Source: an uncultured Neomegalonema sp. (GTDB taxonomy: Bacteria > Pseudomonadota > Alphaproteobacteria > Rhodobacterales > Rhodobacteraceae). From it: a stretch of 57,665 bases of DNA. The stretch covers positions 1 through 57,665 of the forward strand of contig CAZXMX010000001.1 of assembly GCA_964641645.1 (NCBI GenBank). Direction: 5' to 3'. The translations under genes and the position numbers were made by a program. Of this stretch, positions 7,965 through 28,186 are shown in pieces (position 1 is the first letter of the stretch; each line of letters opens with the position of its first letter). The notes under the pieces are model-generated. The model saw only the letters and a list, made by a program, of their open reading frames with translations, was not told the DNA's origin and did not search any database.

Positions 7965-8022
7965 GCGAAACGGATCGATGTAAAACCGATCGGATCGGAC
8001 AAAGAACTGCGAAACGCGCATC

Positions 8023-8934
8023 GTGCTAGCGATTGCACTCATACTCGATGCCGTTTTCGGAGAACCCGATTGGCTTTGGCGGCGACTCTCTCACCCTGCG
8101 GTTCTGATGGGGCGGGCGGTGACTTGGGTTGAGGAAATCGGCAACTCTGGCGACAAACTTTACCTCAAGGGAATAGGCGCAATCCTCGCTCTGATTGCGC
8201 TGGCCCTGATCATCTCGGTTCCACTCTCATGGTCCGGATTCTATGGGGTGTTTGAGATCATTGGGGCGGCCATCCTTTTGGCACAGCGCAGTCTTTCTCA
8301 ACACGTCAACGACGTCGCATCGGGCTTGAATATTTCCCTCGAAGAAGCCCGCAAGCGCGTGGCGATGATCGTGGGGCGTGACCCCGAAACATTAGATGAC
8401 AGCGGCGTCGCCCGAGCTGCGATTGAAAGCGCTGCGGAGAATTGGTCAGACGGTGTCATCGCACCCGCCTTTTGGTTTTTGATCGCAGGCCTTCCCGGAA
8501 TCACCGTTTACAAGATGGTCAACACGGCAGACTCGATGATTGGCCATCGCTCACCGCGATATGCCCAATTCGGATGGGCCTCTGCACGATTGGATGATGT
8601 TCTCAATTGGATTCCAGCGCGACTCAGCGGCCTCCTCATCTGTCTGATTGGAGGTCGACGTCCAGCGCTTAAGATCATGTGGCGCGATGCGCGAAAACAC
8701 AAATCCCCCAATGCTGGTTGGCCAGAAAGCGCTCTCGCTGCAACCCTTCGCATCGCTGTGGCAGGACCAAGGGTCTATAATGGTGTGACGACAGACGACC
8801 CCTTCCTCAATGCAGAAGGGAGACGAAAACTCGACGCCGTTGACGTTAGTGACGCCATGACAACCTTGTGGATGGCTTGGAGCGTCTTACTGGTGATCGC
8901 AATTATCTACGGCGTGTTGGCCTACGCCTTCTGA
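8023..8934 (+). CDS. cobD: adenosylcobinamide-phosphate synthase CobD/CbiB
   Basis: GTG start. LDAVFGEP..L.HP....G and NTADSMIGH motifs are characteristic of CobD/CbiB membrane proteins. Confidence 0.85.
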   Translation: MLAIALILDAVFGEPDWLWRRLSHPAVLMGRAVTWVEEIGNSGDKLYLKGIGAILALIALALIISVPLSWSGFYGVFEIIGAAILLAQRSLSQHVNDVASGLNISLEEARKRVAMIVGRDPETLDDSGVARAAIESAAENWSDGVIAPAFWFLIAGLPGITVYKMVNTADSMIGHRSPRYAQFGWASARLDDVLNWIPARLSGLLICLIGGRRPALKIMWRDARKHKSPNAGWPESALAATLRIAVAGPRVYNGVTTDDPFLNAEGRRKLDAVDVSDAMTTLWMAWSVLLVIAIIYGVLAYAF

Positions 8935-23736: not shown

Positions 23737-23885
23737 TGCGTTCAAAAACAAAAAATTAGCGCTTGTTTTCACGTGTCTTTGAAATGAATTCAAAGCATAA
23801 AAACCTCGCCATGCTTCGGGTGATTTAACTATTTTCTCCCTCAATAAGGCACTCGTATTACGCCGCTACGTTGAGGGATCTGGTC

Positions 23886-24635
23886 ATGCTGGTCGCAGAG
23901 AAATTTAGCACGCCTGTCGAAATACAGCGCCGCGCCGAAAAGCGCGTCCCCTATATTGAACCTTGCTTTGCTCAGACTGACAGCCATTCCCTGTGGGTCA
24001 AATCCATCAACTTGTCCGAAGGCGGCATGTGTATCGCCGTTGATCGACTTGGCGTCCTAACGCGCGGGATTGGCGTTGCAATATTCATCCAGAACTTTCC
24101 CGCACTCGACGCCCGTGTTCAGTGGACGCGAGCAAACATCGCCGGATTAAAGTTCACATCGCCGACAGATGAAAACTCAGACTTCGTAGAACTCATCAAA
24201 CGGCTAAAAGCCGGAGAACCAGCATGGCTTCCGATATCAAAGCCAGATATCGACTCCGTGGTCGGTGAGAGCCTTCACGACCTCCTGAATCCGAGAGAAA
24301 CGACAATCCTGACGCCTGAAACGGAAATGGCGACGCAGCCGCTTGTGCAACTTCGTGCTCACGAGCGCCTCAATTTTACCGAAACCTGTTGGGTTCAAAC
24401 GGATAAACGGAAGTTCCAAGCCGAAGGAATGAACCTCTCAGAGGGTGGCATGTGTTTACGTTTGAACGGCCTTGGAACCATGCATAACGGCAAGGATGTT
24501 CAGATCATCTTCAAGGGCCACTCACCCATCGATGCAACGCTGCGATGGAGCAAAGAACGGGTGATGGGCTTTCAATTCCTAACACCGATCAAGGGTCATC
24601 CGATTTTGCGGGATCTCGTTCCAATCGAAGACTAG
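23886..24635 (+). CDS. tandem PilZ-domain protein (two complete c-di-GMP-binding motif sets)
   Basis: Domain 1 carries RRAEKR (RxxxR) followed by NLSEGG ((D/N)xSxxG). Domain 2 carries RAHER followed by NLSEGG. ATG 23886 is preceded by GAGGGA at 7-nt spacing. Confidence 0.8.
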   Translation: MLVAEKFSTPVEIQRRAEKRVPYIEPCFAQTDSHSLWVKSINLSEGGMCIAVDRLGVLTRGIGVAIFIQNFPALDARVQWTRANIAGLKFTSPTDENSDFVELIKRLKAGEPAWLPISKPDIDSVVGESLHDLLNPRETTILTPETEMATQPLVQLRAHERLNFTETCWVQTDKRKFQAEGMNLSEGGMCLRLNGLGTMHNGKDVQIIFKGHSPIDATLRWSKERVMGFQFLTPIKGHPILRDLVPIED

Positions 24636-24896
24636 CCGAACCGTTGATACACGTTAGCGTCGATCCTATCGATCAGACTCGAATTGTTTCAATCGAGCGA
24701 AGCATGCTCGAAGGTCAGAAATCCTTAGCGCATGCGAAGAAAGCACTCCGGGCGGTTTCCACGGCGTTTTTCCATCCGTAAACCGATCACATTTCCTCGC
24801 GAAAGTGTGGACCGGTAGGCAACCTGACCCGCAAGTTCTATTCTGTGAAAGACGATAGTATTGACGCTATCGGAAAGTGCGGAATAGTTACCCACG

Positions 24897-26822
24897 ATGA
24901 AAAATGTCGAACTGTGCGAACCCGACGTAGGCGTCACCTCTGCCTTAGTTCGGCCCTTGCAACGGGAACAGCGTTCCGAAGGCGGACGCGGGATCGCTGT
25001 TTGCCTCACGCTCTATAATGAGCCAGCAAACCTTCTGCAGTCTTCATTAGAAACGCTTATCGCCAGCCTTGATCAATTAGGAGATCAGAGCTCTGAATTT
25101 TCTCACGCGGTCGTTTGTGTTATCGCCGACGGCGAGACCCATCTTTCGAACTCCGCGCGGACTTACCTGGATACGTTGGGGCTCACGCCGCAAGGCCAAT
25201 CCCTTCGTGGATTCAAGGGCACGATTGACGCGCGAAAAATTCTTCCTTCCCAGTCACTGGGAACATTCGTTCGGAGTTCGTCTTCCCGAATGGAAATTTC
25301 GCTTCGGTTGGTTTCAAAAACAGATAATGCAGGCAAGCTGGATTCGCATTGGTGGTTCTATCAGGAAATTTGCCCACAGATTCAACCCGACTTCTGCTTT
25401 CAGATTGATGCAGGAACCGTCCTAGAACCGAATGCGATCGCTGAGATGTGCGCCACCTTCGATGCTGATCCCAACACCGCAGGAATCGCGAGCAATGTCA
25501 TGATCGCGCCCCCAGAAGACGGCAACCTGCTGGAACGTTTTCAATCGGGTGACTTCGCCGTTCAGAAAACTATTCGCTGGCCGTCGGAAGTCTTTAGCGG
25601 TTTTTTATCGGTCATTCCCGGACAGTTCAGCGGCTTGCGTTGGGAAGCCTTTGCAAAACCTAAAGCACTTGGTGAGCCTTCACCAAAAGATCGATATCTC
25701 CGCGGACAACACTGCGATACCGCGACTGAACGCATGATGTATCTCTCCGAAGATCGCATCATGGGCTTTGAATTAACAACGGAGACGGGGACGATCAATC
25801 GATTAAACTTCGCGCCAAAAGCGGATTGCCATACCGACACCTGCAATACGCTATCTGAATTGCTGCAACAAAGGCGCAGATGGTTAAACGGTAGCTTATT
25901 TTGCCGAAGCTGGATGATCCGAAAGATTTTTGAAATTTTCGCGGATGGTTCGCAATCAGCTACGCATCGCGCACGCTTTGCTCCGGCACTTCTGAACCTC
26001 AGCATCCAACATTTGCTCGAATGGTTCCTACCGCTTTTGAACATTCTTTTGCTCGCCGTCACGTGGAACTCACTCGTTAGCTTAGCGTGGCCCTATACAG
26101 CAGGTGTCATTTTTACGGTGATTGCGAGCATTTGGCTATTGCCAACCGGCTTAGCGCTAACCGGCACCGTTAAGCGGCTAAGCTCGCGACAAGTCGAAAT
26201 CCTCCTCCAAATCGTCAAGATGACGTTCGTCGCGATCATCGCGATCAATCTAACGAGTTTAGCGCAAAAGTCGGAGACGACGGCCTACCTGTATTACCTG
26301 TCGATGCCCTTTGCATTGACCGCCGGCGCTTTCTTAGGAGCTCTCATATCGAACCGCGCGTTGCTCAAGCACCTGAGAGCTTCCATTTTCACCTTTATCT
26401 CGCTCGCGCCATCGATGTGGTTGATGCTGTCGTCTTACGCTTTTTTCAACTTGCACGATGGCAGCTGGGGAACGAAAGGCTTGCACCAGCAGGACACCGT
26501 GGTTTCGGCCAAAGAGCGCTCCATCGCCGAACAGTTTAAACGGCTCCGGTTGGGGATCGTCTCGGCTTGGCTCATTTCAAATTCTGTGTTGGCGGCGATG
26601 CTATTGCATTCCGACAACATGGGGATCGCTCTAATCGCAGCGGCAAGTCTGCAAATCGCGATGATTGCAACTGGCCTGTTAGGAGTGATCTCAATCAAGT
26701 TGAAGCAAACGAACGATGTGCTTCCTCGACCGTGGAATCTTCTGAAAACGCTTCAGCGCCGTCTCATTCGAGGCCCAGTAAGCCAACCCCAAAATGCCTA
26801 TCGTCGCGCGCGTCGAACTTAG
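24897..26822 (+). CDS. chitin-synthase-like processive family-2 glycosyltransferase (fungal division-1 signature set, 6-7 C-terminal TM segments)
   Basis: Motifs in order: CLTLYNE (aa 36-42), VVCVIADGE (72-80), KLDSHWWFY (147-155), QIDAGT (169-174), IPGQFSGLRW (240-249), MYLSEDRIMGFEL (281-293), LLQQRRRWLNGS (322-333), several hydrophobic helices, then FFNLHDGSWGTKG (516-528). Confidence 0.8.
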   Translation: MKNVELCEPDVGVTSALVRPLQREQRSEGGRGIAVCLTLYNEPANLLQSSLETLIASLDQLGDQSSEFSHAVVCVIADGETHLSNSARTYLDTLGLTPQGQSLRGFKGTIDARKILPSQSLGTFVRSSSSRMEISLRLVSKTDNAGKLDSHWWFYQEICPQIQPDFCFQIDAGTVLEPNAIAEMCATFDADPNTAGIASNVMIAPPEDGNLLERFQSGDFAVQKTIRWPSEVFSGFLSVIPGQFSGLRWEAFAKPKALGEPSPKDRYLRGQHCDTATERMMYLSEDRIMGFELTTETGTINRLNFAPKADCHTDTCNTLSELLQQRRRWLNGSLFCRSWMIRKIFEIFADGSQSATHRARFAPALLNLSIQHLLEWFLPLLNILLLAVTWNSLVSLAWPYTAGVIFTVIASIWLLPTGLALTGTVKRLSSRQVEILLQIVKMTFVAIIAINLTSLAQKSETTAYLYYLSMPFALTAGAFLGALISNRALLKHLRASIFTFISLAPSMWLMLSSYAFFNLHDGSWGTKGLHQQDTVVSAKERSIAEQFKRLRLGIVSAWLISNSVLAAMLLHSDNMGIALIAAASLQIAMIATGLLGVISIKLKQTNDVLPRPWNLLKTLQRRLIRGPVSQPQNAYRRARRT

Positions 26823-26835
26823 CGGAAAGTCGGGG

Positions 26836-27504
26836 TCATTGAATCTTTCGACCATTCAGGTCGCAATAGGCACCGCCGGTATTCATCTCCCAACCGCGCG
26901 TCAGAAGCTGACCGTTCGACTGCCGCAGATTTAAAATTCCGATATGAATCTCAGAGCCAGTCAGGCTGTTCTGCGCCACCATCACATACGTAACGACACT
27001 TCGATCGCGGCGTAGTTCGAGAATTTCTCCAGCGCCTTTAAACGAATTACCAGAGCTAAAAGTACTCTCGCCTTTTAGAATGCCGGGAGCTGAGACACGG
27101 AAGACCTGTTGGCTTGCGGCGTCGACATCTTGGACAAAAAAGTTGACGTCGCAGGACGCCTCATGCTCCCAACGCCCACTTAATGCACCATCGCTCAAAC
27201 TCGAAAGCGAGTCATTCGCTGGATCATGCCACGCCGTATGATCTGCAACTTTCGGTGTCCACGCTTGTCCGGTCTTTTTCTGAAAAAGCTTCGTTGCGCT
27301 GTCGACAAAACGACCATCCGAAAAATGTAGCAAGTAGGCCGAGATAATCCCGGAATTTTCGGTTCTCTTCGCTGCAGTCCAAAACTGTTGCTCGGCGCTT
27401 TGGATCTCAGCGGATGACGCCTCGACGATACGAGGGTGGGAAACGAAGAACGATCCGACGACAATCGCCATGAAGGCTGCATGAACCAGTTTCAAGAACG
27501 TCAC
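26836..27504 (-). CDS. hypothetical exported protein
   Basis: N-terminal hydrophobic segment AAFMAIVVGSFFV. I recognise no family. The start is uncertain: GTG 27504 overlaps its own GAGGAG, while TTG 27495 has better spacing. Confidence 0.5.
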   Translation of the reverse strand: MTFLKLVHAAFMAIVVGSFFVSHPRIVEASSAEIQSAEQQFWTAAKRTENSGIISAYLLHFSDGRFVDSATKLFQKKTGQAWTPKVADHTAWHDPANDSLSSLSDGALSGRWEHEASCDVNFFVQDVDAASQQVFRVSAPGILKGESTFSSGNSFKGAGEILELRRDRSVVTYVMVAQNSLTGSEIHIGILNLRQSNGQLLTRGWEMNTGGAYCDLNGRKIQ

Positions 27505-27520
27505 TCCTCAGACAAACAAC

Positions 27521-27550
27521 AAAACAGCCGCCCAAATGGACGGCTGTTTT
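27521..27550 (-). terminator. rho-independent terminator downstream of the YceI-family gene (usable in both orientations)
   Basis: AAAACAGCCG-cccaaatgga-CGGCTGTTTT forms a 10-bp perfect stem. On the minus strand it is followed by GTTGTTTG and on the plus strand by CATTC. Confidence 0.65.
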
Positions 27551-27577
27551 CATTCAACTAGGTGAGCAGTTATCAGA

Positions 27578-28186
27578 TCACCAACCGCCTTCTCTCATTT
27601 CCGAGTTAATCACCAACCGGACCCGGTCTGACGTGAGAGGTGCAAACATTCCAACGCCAAATTCTGAGCGGAGGATCGAACCTTCGGCGCGAATACCGAC
27701 CCAATCACCTTCGTAGTAGGGAATGAATTTGCCAAGCGGATGCTTCCCTTTGTGAAGTAATTCGACATCCAACGTAATCGACTTTGTCACGTCTTTGATC
27801 GTCAGTTCACCTTCGATTGTAAGGCCGCTCGCAGAAATCTGCTTAGCGCCCGTGGAAACAAATTTAATCTCCGGGTGCTTTTCGACCTCAAAGAAGTCCG
27901 CGCTTTTTAGGTGTTTGTCTAAGCCTTCAACGCCCGTATTAATGCTACCAGATTCAATGGTGACATTGACCGCGGTTGCGTCCTTGTCTTCTTCGTCGAA
28001 ATCAACTGTCCCTTTGACGCCATCCCAGCGTCCAGACTGCTCTGATACGCCAGCATGGTTCCAGAAGAACCGAACATCGGTGTGCCCTGGGTCCAGGTGA
28101 AAGGTATCAGCGACTGCTGGCGCCGAAGCGAACAAGGCAGCAGTTAAGATCGTTGTCGTCAAAGCGCGCATATTGTTTTCCATCAA
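27578..28186 (-). CDS. YceI family (polyisoprenoid-binding) periplasmic protein
   Basis: Signal peptide, then F.LDPGHTDVRF...H.G.S...G.....G...FD, the YceI signature. Confidence 0.85.
   Translation of the reverse strand: MMENNMRALTTTILTAALFASAPAVADTFHLDPGHTDVRFFWNHAGVSEQSGRWDGVKGTVDFDEEDKDATAVNVTIESGSINTGVEGLDKHLKSADFFEVEKHPEIKFVSTGAKQISASGLTIEGELTIKDVTKSITLDVELLHKGKHPLGKFIPYYEGDWVGIRAEGSILRSEFGVGMFAPLTSDRVRLVINSEMREGGW

Follow-up and report, generated by a model that had tools for sequence, protein, structure and literature searches.

A bacterial-clan division-1 chitin synthase homologue and its linked secreted protein in an uncultured Neomegalonema (Rhodobacterales)

Introduction

Chitin is regarded as a eukaryotic polymer, and since 2016 it has been asked whether the chitin synthase (CHS) genes scattered among bacteria yield chitin or chito-oligosaccharides. 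The same question is raised by a gene on a 57,665-nucleotide stretch of DNA from an uncultured Neomegalonema sp. (contig CAZXMX010000001.1; hereafter the window, meaning the whole stretch that was analysed). An earlier note, made from the DNA letters, had placed an intact, eukaryote-type CHS homologue at 24897..26822 on the plus strand, and an open reading frame (ORF) with exactly these coordinates encodes it. We consider it probable that the product is a bacterial-clan chitin synthase, i.e. a transferase using uridine diphosphate N-acetylglucosamine (UDP-GlcNAc) which would make chitin or chito-oligomers and deliver them into the periplasm.

Division-1 CHS genes have been described in about a dozen bacteria, among them Dickeya, Pectobacterium, Brenneria, Agrobacterium vitis, Pseudomonas cichorii, Teredinibacter and Cellvibrio mixtus, and were interpreted as the result of a single transfer from a eukaryote to a bacterium, after which the genes spread from one bacterium to another (Goncalves et al., 2016; BMC Evol Biol 16:252, PMC5122149). 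The bacterial proteins have a short N-terminus without the Chitin_synth_1N domain, their genes are found with epimerase, DUF1501 or DUF1800 genes or in secondary-metabolite clusters, and their enzyme activity was stated to be untested (Goncalves et al., 2016). The novelty claimed in the earlier note was thus pre-empted in 2016, as the window CHS falls in the same clan; the class is already known, and the window gene adds a member in a new host group, the Rhodobacterales. In the literature searched, including papers citing Goncalves et al. (2016), we found no functional study of any bacterial CHS, and no link of CHS with PilZ or cyclic di-GMP (c-di-GMP), or of Meganema or Neomegalonema with chitin.

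Family assignment, fold and motifs

On its profile, sequence and fold matches, the window CHS is a homologue of the division-1 chitin synthases and is predicted to share their fold. In Pfam it matches Chitin_synth_1 (PF01644) with 73.3 bits (E 2.8e-20, cut-off 25) over profile positions 1-163 of 163, ahead of Glyco_trans_2_3 (49.3 bits) and Chitin_synth_2 (46.1 bits), and no cellulose-synthase model was listed at E <= 1. The earlier note had expected this ranking, and had named a generic bacterial family 2 glycosyltransferase (GT2) as the best match that would tell against it. No such match was seen: the NCBIfam model PgaC_IcaA reached 22.7 bits against a cut-off of 422, and no NCBIfam model came near its own cut-off. 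In a phmmer search of the PDB, the alignment spans residues 33-542 and the matches are Phytophthora sojae Chs1 (4e-36), Candida albicans Chs2 (5e-33) and S. cerevisiae Chs1 (1e-29), with hyaluronan synthase at E 0.42.

The AlphaFold2 model, made from 29 homologues (predicted local distance difference test score (pLDDT) 85.3, predicted template modelling score (pTM) 0.84), points to the same family. Its helix order agrees with that described for S. cerevisiae Chs1 (ScChs1), with a GT-A domain, three interface (IF) helices and six transmembrane (TM) helices, and IF3 between TM4 and TM5. Chitin synthases make up all of the top 20 Foldseek matches in the PDB (E ~5e-27, TMq 0.72-0.76; root-mean-square deviation to ScChs1 8k3t 4.6 A), and the next family is hyaluronan synthase with a TMq of at most 0.44, while BcsA reaches ~0.35. 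Superposition on fungal and oomycete Chs, a check proposed in the earlier note, gave a TM-score of ~0.75, compared with <=0.44 for any other family.

The window CHS shares with P. sojae Chs1 (PsChs1, 7wjm), C. albicans Chs2 (CaChs2, 7stl) and ScChs1 (7xs6/8k3t) this fold and domain plan, as well as nine functional motifs including the catalytic EDR, the gate-loop proline, QRRRW and SWG, but it is 19-21% identical to them in the structural alignment. It also differs in lacking the part which lies N-terminally in these enzymes (MIT, LG and SP subdomains, or Chitin_synth_1N) and has a role in dimerisation and regulation, in its IF3-TM5 loop of ~20 rather than 56 residues, and in having PGQ for PGA, QxxDF for QxFEY and DGx for DGR.

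All eight motif strings recorded in the earlier note are present in the translation (Table 1). Nine motifs have been defined in PsChs1, mutation of which impairs activity (PMC9556331), and counterparts of all nine occur at aligned positions in the window CHS, three of them with conservative or clan-specific changes; the catalytic and gate residues are identical. Across 45 bacterial and 10 eukaryotic sequences EDR, QRxRW and WGTKG are invariant. The signatures of the bacterial sequences are PGQ, QxxDF and a variable third residue in DGx, with the final Q of VIPGQ present in 45/45 bacterial sequences and A in 10/10 eukaryotes.

Such clan-specific positions (DGx, QxxDF, PGQ) could mean that the sugar specificity has changed, in which case the product would be another, mixed or modified beta-linked polymer, e.g. 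glucosamine-containing or hyaluronan-like, rather than chitin. Among the relatives there are some with linked epimerases or with an aminotransferase fusion, and the window protein is evolving fast, with 0.27 nonsynonymous substitutions per site (dN) compared with 0.02-0.05 for its housekeeping neighbours. However, the residues in the uridine tub, in the catalytic cave and at the entrance of the channel are either kept or exchanged conservatively, hyaluronan and cellulose synthases are much less similar to the window CHS, and neither an epimerase nor an aminotransferase is present at the window locus. We regard a changed specificity as very unlikely.

A bacteria-only clan

A protein search returned 55 relatives of the window CHS. 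The top ones are metagenomic proteins with 65-70% and 56% identity; bacterial relatives at 27-35% come from Marinomonas spartinae, Alteromonadaceae and a deltaproteobacterium, and eukaryotic CHS at ~25% from Plasmodiophora, Spongospora, Mortierella, Synchytrium and yeasts. A scan covering one genome for each GTDB species gave at least 47 bacterial CHS loci; this is a lower bound, because the scan works by sequence patterns and Dickeya was missed. Closest to the window CHS are four loci (56-65%) in metagenome-assembled genomes (MAGs) labelled uncultured Neomegalonema, Rhodobacterales. Others are found in Alphaproteobacteria (Acetobacteraceae, Roseiarcus, Rhizobiaceae), Betaproteobacteria (Massilia, Polaromonas, Rhodoferax, Burkholderia) and Gammaproteobacteria (Cellvibrio, Hahella, Marinomonas, Pectobacterium), and further loci in Bacteroidota, Cyanobacteria and Geobacter/Desulfobacteraceae (Desulfobacterota).

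In a neighbour-joining (NJ) tree of 65 sequences (549 columns, 100 bootstraps), an unrooted distance tree without division-2 CHS, hyaluronan synthase or NodC as outgroup, 45/45 bacterial CHS were split from 10/10 named eukaryotic CHS in 100/100 bootstraps. The window CHS lies within a Neomegalonema subclade (support 100), the next neighbours of which are Marinomonas, Hahella and Cellvibrionaceae (support 93), and the bacterial side also includes Cellvibrio mixtus together with Pectobacterium and Allorhizobium species. On this tree the window CHS is a member of a bacteria-only clan of division-1 chitin synthases. Chitin_synth_1N (PF08407), which is present in the fungal matches of the protein search, gave no match in the window CHS at E <= 1, and only ~30 residues precede TLYNE. 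The specific likeness to fungal classes I-III seen by the earlier note therefore has to be given up, since the protein is without Chitin_synth_1N and is separated from the named eukaryotic CHS in every bootstrap. Membership of the bacteria-only clan, together with the missing N-terminal domain, points to an old transfer with later spread among bacteria and not to a recent fungal import. Judged by these sequences, the lineage is old and horizontally scattered in bacteria.

The window CHS resembles the bacterial CHS published in 2016 in its short N-terminus without Chitin_synth_1N, in having all of the D,D,D,QxxRW and CHS-specific motifs, and in belonging to one bacteria-only clan with them (Cellvibrio mixtus; the genera Pectobacterium and Allorhizobium). 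It differs in being ~27-31% identical to the published members and in standing in a separate subclade, formed by the Neomegalonema MAGs and then Marinomonas, Hahella and Cellvibrionaceae. Its locus is without an epimerase, DUF1501, DUF1800, non-ribosomal peptide synthetase (NRPS) or ATP-binding cassette (ABC) exporter context; instead, CHS is accompanied by the gene of a secreted protein specific to the clade and has a tandem-PilZ (di-PilZ) gene beside it, and its host belongs to the Rhodobacterales, a group absent from the 2016 list.

Gene integrity and genomic setting

The ATG at 24897 is supported as the start because the N-terminus MKNVELCEPDV is kept in the closest orthologues (MKKIELCESEI, MKNVELFETDV). 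The earlier note's impression of an intact gene is borne out, as the frame is uninterrupted and comparison with the L001 orthologue gives a proportion of nonsynonymous differences (pN) of 0.23 and of synonymous differences (pS) of 0.80; the gene is evidently under purifying constraint. Synonymous sites are saturated (pS 0.65-0.80), so pN and pS are given in place of a reliable dN/dS. Compared with glnA (pN 0.019) and the sulfhydrylase gene (pN 0.046), CHS is evolving much more rapidly.

Otherwise the window is ordinary alphaproteobacterial chromosome of marine type. CHS is flanked by housekeeping genes, namely glnA, glnB, those for O-acetylhomoserine sulfhydrylase, an sdhA-like flavoprotein (succinate-dehydrogenase-type) and ABC transporters, and yidC; yebC and photolyase genes are also in the window. 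The same arrangement of CHS and bacterial flanks is repeated in independent assemblies from several sources, which excludes eukaryotic contamination and, along with the ORF and the Pfam and PDB matches, upholds the description of a eukaryote-type CHS homologue in a bacterial chromosome. A search for island boundaries found no tRNA genes in the 57.7-kb window and no flanking repeats around the CHS region, and tblastn of 72,556 PLSDB plasmids found no CHS-like gene.

The di-PilZ, CHS, hyp222 and YceI genes (23871-28186; see below for the first and third) are alike in G+C, at 0.506-0.522, with CHS alone at 0.518. The upstream alcohol dehydrogenase (ADH) gene has 0.591, the downstream glnA 0.550 and the window as a whole 0.547, and the low-G+C patch extends beyond CHS and hyp222.

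A G+C below the window mean might be taken as a sign of an artefact or relic, i.e. eukaryotic contamination, mis-assembly or a decaying recent acquisition from a fungus. This explanation can be considered refuted as far as sequence data allow. Beside the recurrence of the same order in independent assemblies, the frame is open and constrained, the protein falls within a bacteria-only clan, and the neighbouring PilZ, hyp222 and YceI genes are equally low in G+C.

The linked secreted protein

Convergent with CHS is a gene, here called hyp222, for a predicted secreted protein (Table 1). In every locus of the Neomegalonema clade it lies at -3 to +53 bp from the CHS stop codon, and the pair is found at two different chromosomal sites; in L051 its surroundings are entirely different, as MaoC and FAD synthetase genes lie upstream of it and a radical-SAM gene lies downstream. 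Divergence runs in parallel, with identities of 73/70/65/59/57/56% for CHS and 76/72/64/56/56/53% for hyp222. Because the genes are adjacent at both sites and diverge in parallel, CHS and hyp222 are evidently inherited together as a two-gene module in the Neomegalonema subclade.

The protein carries a Sec-type signal peptide; two of its cysteines are invariant, and its C-terminus (TRGWEMNTGGAYCD) is strongly conserved. Its model (pLDDT 83.8) shows a hairpin like that of tetratricopeptide repeats (TPR) at residues ~30-90 and an eight-stranded soluble beta-barrel at 110-221. An outer-membrane barrel was also considered and was rejected by eye, as the strands have a charged face and a hydrophobic core, with no C-terminal aromatic signature. 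The family consists of 14 proteins. No match was found in Pfam or NCBIfam, and the Foldseek matches, to small barrels of designed, nitrobindin-like or lipocalin-like type, were weak. When 1.84 billion proteins were searched with a profile, one full-length cluster was returned and otherwise the N-terminal 40-70 residues only, and this N-terminal repeat matches caspase-domain, TPR and YfiO-like proteins. Because of its linkage to CHS alone, the protein plausibly acts on or with the CHS product in the periplasm.

The hairpin at residues ~30-90 (AEQxFWxAA...SAYLLHFxxGRFxxxA) matches a repeat which is present 3-11 times in large bacterial proteins. Most of eight such proteins scanned also have caspase (Peptidase_C14) domains, and their YfiO- or TPR-type matches are weak.

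Between the yceI stop and the hyp222 start there is a strong nucleic-acid hairpin at 27521-27550, with 13 pairs followed by a T-run (minus strand). It resembles a terminator of yceI, in which case hyp222 would have its own transcript.

The tandem-PilZ gene and the region upstream of CHS

The protein encoded upstream of CHS matches Pfam PilZ in two stretches (E 1.3e-20). The c-di-GMP motifs are canonical in both domains (R21AEKR25 and N47LSEGG; RAHER at ~161-165 and N188LSEGG), and RxxxR and NxSxxG are kept in orthologues. This raises the possibility of an arrangement in which CHS is activated by c-di-GMP through the di-PilZ protein, a version in trans of the BcsA PilZ domain or of Alg44, as part of a biofilm-matrix chitin system. 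A PilZ gene is found beside CHS in at least four lineages, even where a gene is inserted upstream of PilZ, and the di-PilZ gene adjoins CHS in L001, L048-50 and L055.

However, the contexts of homologues speak against such a link, and the di-PilZ gene was downgraded from a candidate part of the CHS system. L054 has a 45%-identical di-PilZ orthologue in the same flank of DnaJ, hydrolase, sulfhydrylase and ADH genes with no CHS beside it, whereas in the 56-59% subclade, including L051, the CHS-hyp222 pair is elsewhere and has no di-PilZ neighbour. In the other ~40 bacterial loci phmmer, which has limited sensitivity here, detected no PilZ in the vicinity of CHS. Because the flank keeps di-PilZ without CHS in L054, and CHS occurs without di-PilZ in L051, the gene appears to be a resident of the flank next to which the CHS-hyp222 module stands, and its membership in the CHS system is doubtful.

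The intergenic region adds to this. Its CHS-proximal ~130 bp are conserved in four lineages and the PilZ-proximal half is not, and within the conserved part is a near-palindrome, GATCACATTTyCTCGCGAAArTGTGGA, in the window (24785-24811), L001 (5889-5915), L048 (5888-5914) and L055 (1227-1253). Because the proximal ~130 bp are conserved even though synonymous sites are saturated, a control element of its own is suggested for CHS, i.e. a candidate promoter or operator. No riboswitch or known RNA (Rfam) was found in the PilZ-CHS intergenic region. Promoter and terminator scans gave counts no better than those for shuffled sequence. Overall, activation of CHS by c-di-GMP through this gene seems unlikely.

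The locus does have in common with the BcsA-PilZ, Alg44 and PgaCD systems a membrane GT2 synthase-translocase gene beside a PilZ gene with canonical binding motifs. It differs in that the PilZ protein is not fused to the synthase and does not appear to be inherited together with it, in the distance of the synthase from BcsA (TM ~0.35) and PgaC_IcaA (22.7 bits, cut-off 422), and in that no BcsB/BcsC-like or PgaA/PgaB-like partners were found for the window CHS.

Two side observations concern these elements. The di-PilZ protein (23871-24635) and its L054 counterpart (8001-8735) are 45% identical where the flanking genes are 83-91% identical, and the putative c-di-GMP receptor is, on this comparison, diverging unusually fast. 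A different palindrome, CACAAATTTGTG, lies upstream of CHS in L002 and L003.

Contexts of other bacterial CHS genes

The neighbours of bacterial CHS loci include ABC exporters (11 loci), DUF1800 (10), NRPS (9), DUF1501 (7) and epimerases (4), which agrees with the contexts given by Goncalves et al. (2016), with ABC exporters as an addition. Epimerase, DUF1501 and DUF1800 genes, typical but not universal in the clan, are absent beside the window CHS, where the neighbours are PilZ, hyp222 and YceI. NRPS-type genes (AMP-binding, Condensation, PP-binding) lie within 5 kb of CHS in nine loci, e.g. L013, L022, L009, L014, L018, L026, L027 and L035, and directly beside it in several, such as L013, L022, L026, L027 and L035; the 11 ABC exporters are also within 5 kb. 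The nearness of NRPS and ABC-exporter genes suggests that some CHS of the bacterial clan work in small-molecule pathways.

The window CHS might likewise make only short chito-oligosaccharides, as signals or building blocks, which would be periplasmic or exported as in the case of NodC, and not a chitin polymer or matrix. NodC is a bacterial GT2 which polymerises GlcNAc in beta-1,4 linkage from UDP-GlcNAc. To our knowledge it is without the TMYNE, NSHxWF and SWGTKG blocks and the six-helix channel, and has only products with a degree of polymerisation of 4-5. Several points would fit an oligosaccharide product in addition to these gene contexts. Of the 72 Pfam families matched in the window, the 25 most frequent include no outer-membrane porin or TPR-barrel exporter, and the 56-residue swapping loop of ScChs1, proposed to coordinate two protomers for fibre formation, is much shorter in the window CHS. 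The possibility was also raised by Goncalves et al. (2016).

Nevertheless, the six-helix channel and gate-loop architecture of processive Chs are kept in full, and no genes that would modify or consume an oligosaccharide are present at the locus. NodC itself is too remote to be detected: tblastn gave no match to the window CHS at E <= 1e-3 among the 72,556 PLSDB plasmids, which presumably include rhizobial symbiosis plasmids with nodC. A product limited to short oligosaccharides is therefore, in our judgement, rather unlikely.

Two variants within the clan were also seen. Three MAGs (Alteromonadaceae NORP12, alphaproteobacterium MFD04463.bin.3.342 and Pseudomonadota SOY_29_metabat_66) each have two distinct CHS paralogues on different contigs, the paralogue pairs being L009+L014, L019+L025 and L026+L028. 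In Pectobacterium peruviense the CHS ORF (L039 5869-8949) has 1026 residues compared with 610-700 typical of the clan, which fits the aminotransferase fusion of Goncalves et al. (2016).

Table 1. Features of the CHS locus and of the window CHS. Residue numbers refer to the CHS protein; counterparts are given relative to PsChs1.
Feature	Position	Strand	CHS residues	Remarks
Tandem-PilZ protein gene	23871..24635	+		254 aa, 261 bp upstream of CHS
Palindromic block GATCACATTTCCTCGCGAAAGTGTGGA	24785..24811	+		~90 nt upstream of CHS start; candidate operator/promoter element
CHS homologue gene	24897..26822	+		641 aa, ATG start, from ORF listing; bacterial clade of division 1
hyp222	26836..27504	-		222 aa, predicted secreted; convergent with CHS
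Chitin_synth_1 profile stretch	25011..25460	+	39-188	
GT-A domain			~31-318	Cytoplasmic; AlphaFold2 model
Three interface and six TM helices			~319-606	AlphaFold2 model helix pattern
CLTLYNE			36-42	
VVCVIADGE			72-80	
KLDSHWWFY			147-155	
QIDAGT			169-174	
IPGQFSGLRW			240-249	
MYLSEDRIMGFEL			281-293	
LLQQRRRWLNGS			322-333	
FFNLHDGSWGTKG			516-528	
TLYNE (TMYNE)			38-42	Counterpart of uridine-binding 'tub' motif
DGE (DGR)			78-80	'Tub' motif counterpart
NAGKL (KASKL)			144-148	'Tub' motif counterpart
DAGT (DVGT)			171-174	'Tub' motif counterpart
QSGDF (QHFEY)			216-220	
VIPGQ (VLPGA)	25611..25625	+	239-243	'Gate-lock' loop counterpart; proline kept
EDR (EDR)	25749..25757	+	285-287	Predicted catalytic base Asp286 and Glu285 counterpart
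QRRRW (QRKRW)	25869..25883	+	325-329	Interface helix 2, channel entrance, diphosphate contact
SWGTKG (SWG)	26463..26480	+	523-528	Cytoplasmic loop between interface helix 3 and TM5

Proposed function

If the window CHS makes chitin or chito-oligomers, its mechanism can be sketched by analogy, with the UDP-GlcNAc donor, the Asp286 base and the processive extrusion of beta-1,4-GlcNAc taken from eukaryotic structures. UDP-GlcNAc would be bound by the cytoplasmic GT-A domain in a pocket of TLYNE, DGx, NxGKL and DAGT, and Asp286 in EDR would act as the catalytic base. The growing beta-1,4-GlcNAc chain would be led past the gate loop with VIPGQ and the helix with QRRRW, and would pass through the channel of six TM helices to reach the periplasm as chitin or chito-oligomers. 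There the secreted hyp222 protein, with its TPR hairpin and beta-barrel, may handle the product.

Several points weigh against this proposal. GlcNAc specificity and chain length are inferred from the conservation of motifs and fold alone, and the motifs themselves are changed relative to eukaryotes in DGR to DGE, QHFEY to QSGDF and VLPGA to VIPGQ. The IF3-TM5 loop which bears SWG is short (~20 residues) beside the 56-residue domain-swapping loop of ScChs1. The role given to hyp222 is purely deduced from its linkage. The 25 commonest of the window's 72 Pfam families include neither an outer-membrane export component nor a chitin deacetylase or chitinase, and the NRPS, ABC-exporter and DUF1800/DUF1501 neighbours of relatives elsewhere hint at small-molecule or oligosaccharide products instead of structural chitin.

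A bolder proposal would be that CHS and hyp222, possibly gated by di-PilZ, are a minimal and previously undescribed machinery depositing genuine chitin as a cell-surface or biofilm matrix in a Gram-negative marine alphaproteobacterium. We hold this to be distinctly unlikely. If it were true, bacteria would join the chitin producers.

Significance

The bacterial clan is now known from at least 47 species-level genomes, a wider range than before, with members in Alpha-, Beta- and Gammaproteobacteria, Bacteroidota, Cyanobacteria and Desulfobacterota. The window locus offers one of the simplest contexts, with one synthase and one small secreted partner and no NRPS or DUF1501/DUF1800 genes, and is accordingly well suited to heterologous expression. 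A bacterial Chs that is free of the regulatory N-terminus of eukaryotes may also be of use in structural work, and in the production of chitin or chito-oligosaccharides. What remains of interest is the biochemistry of the clan as a whole, and the compact module of CHS and hyp222 at the window locus.

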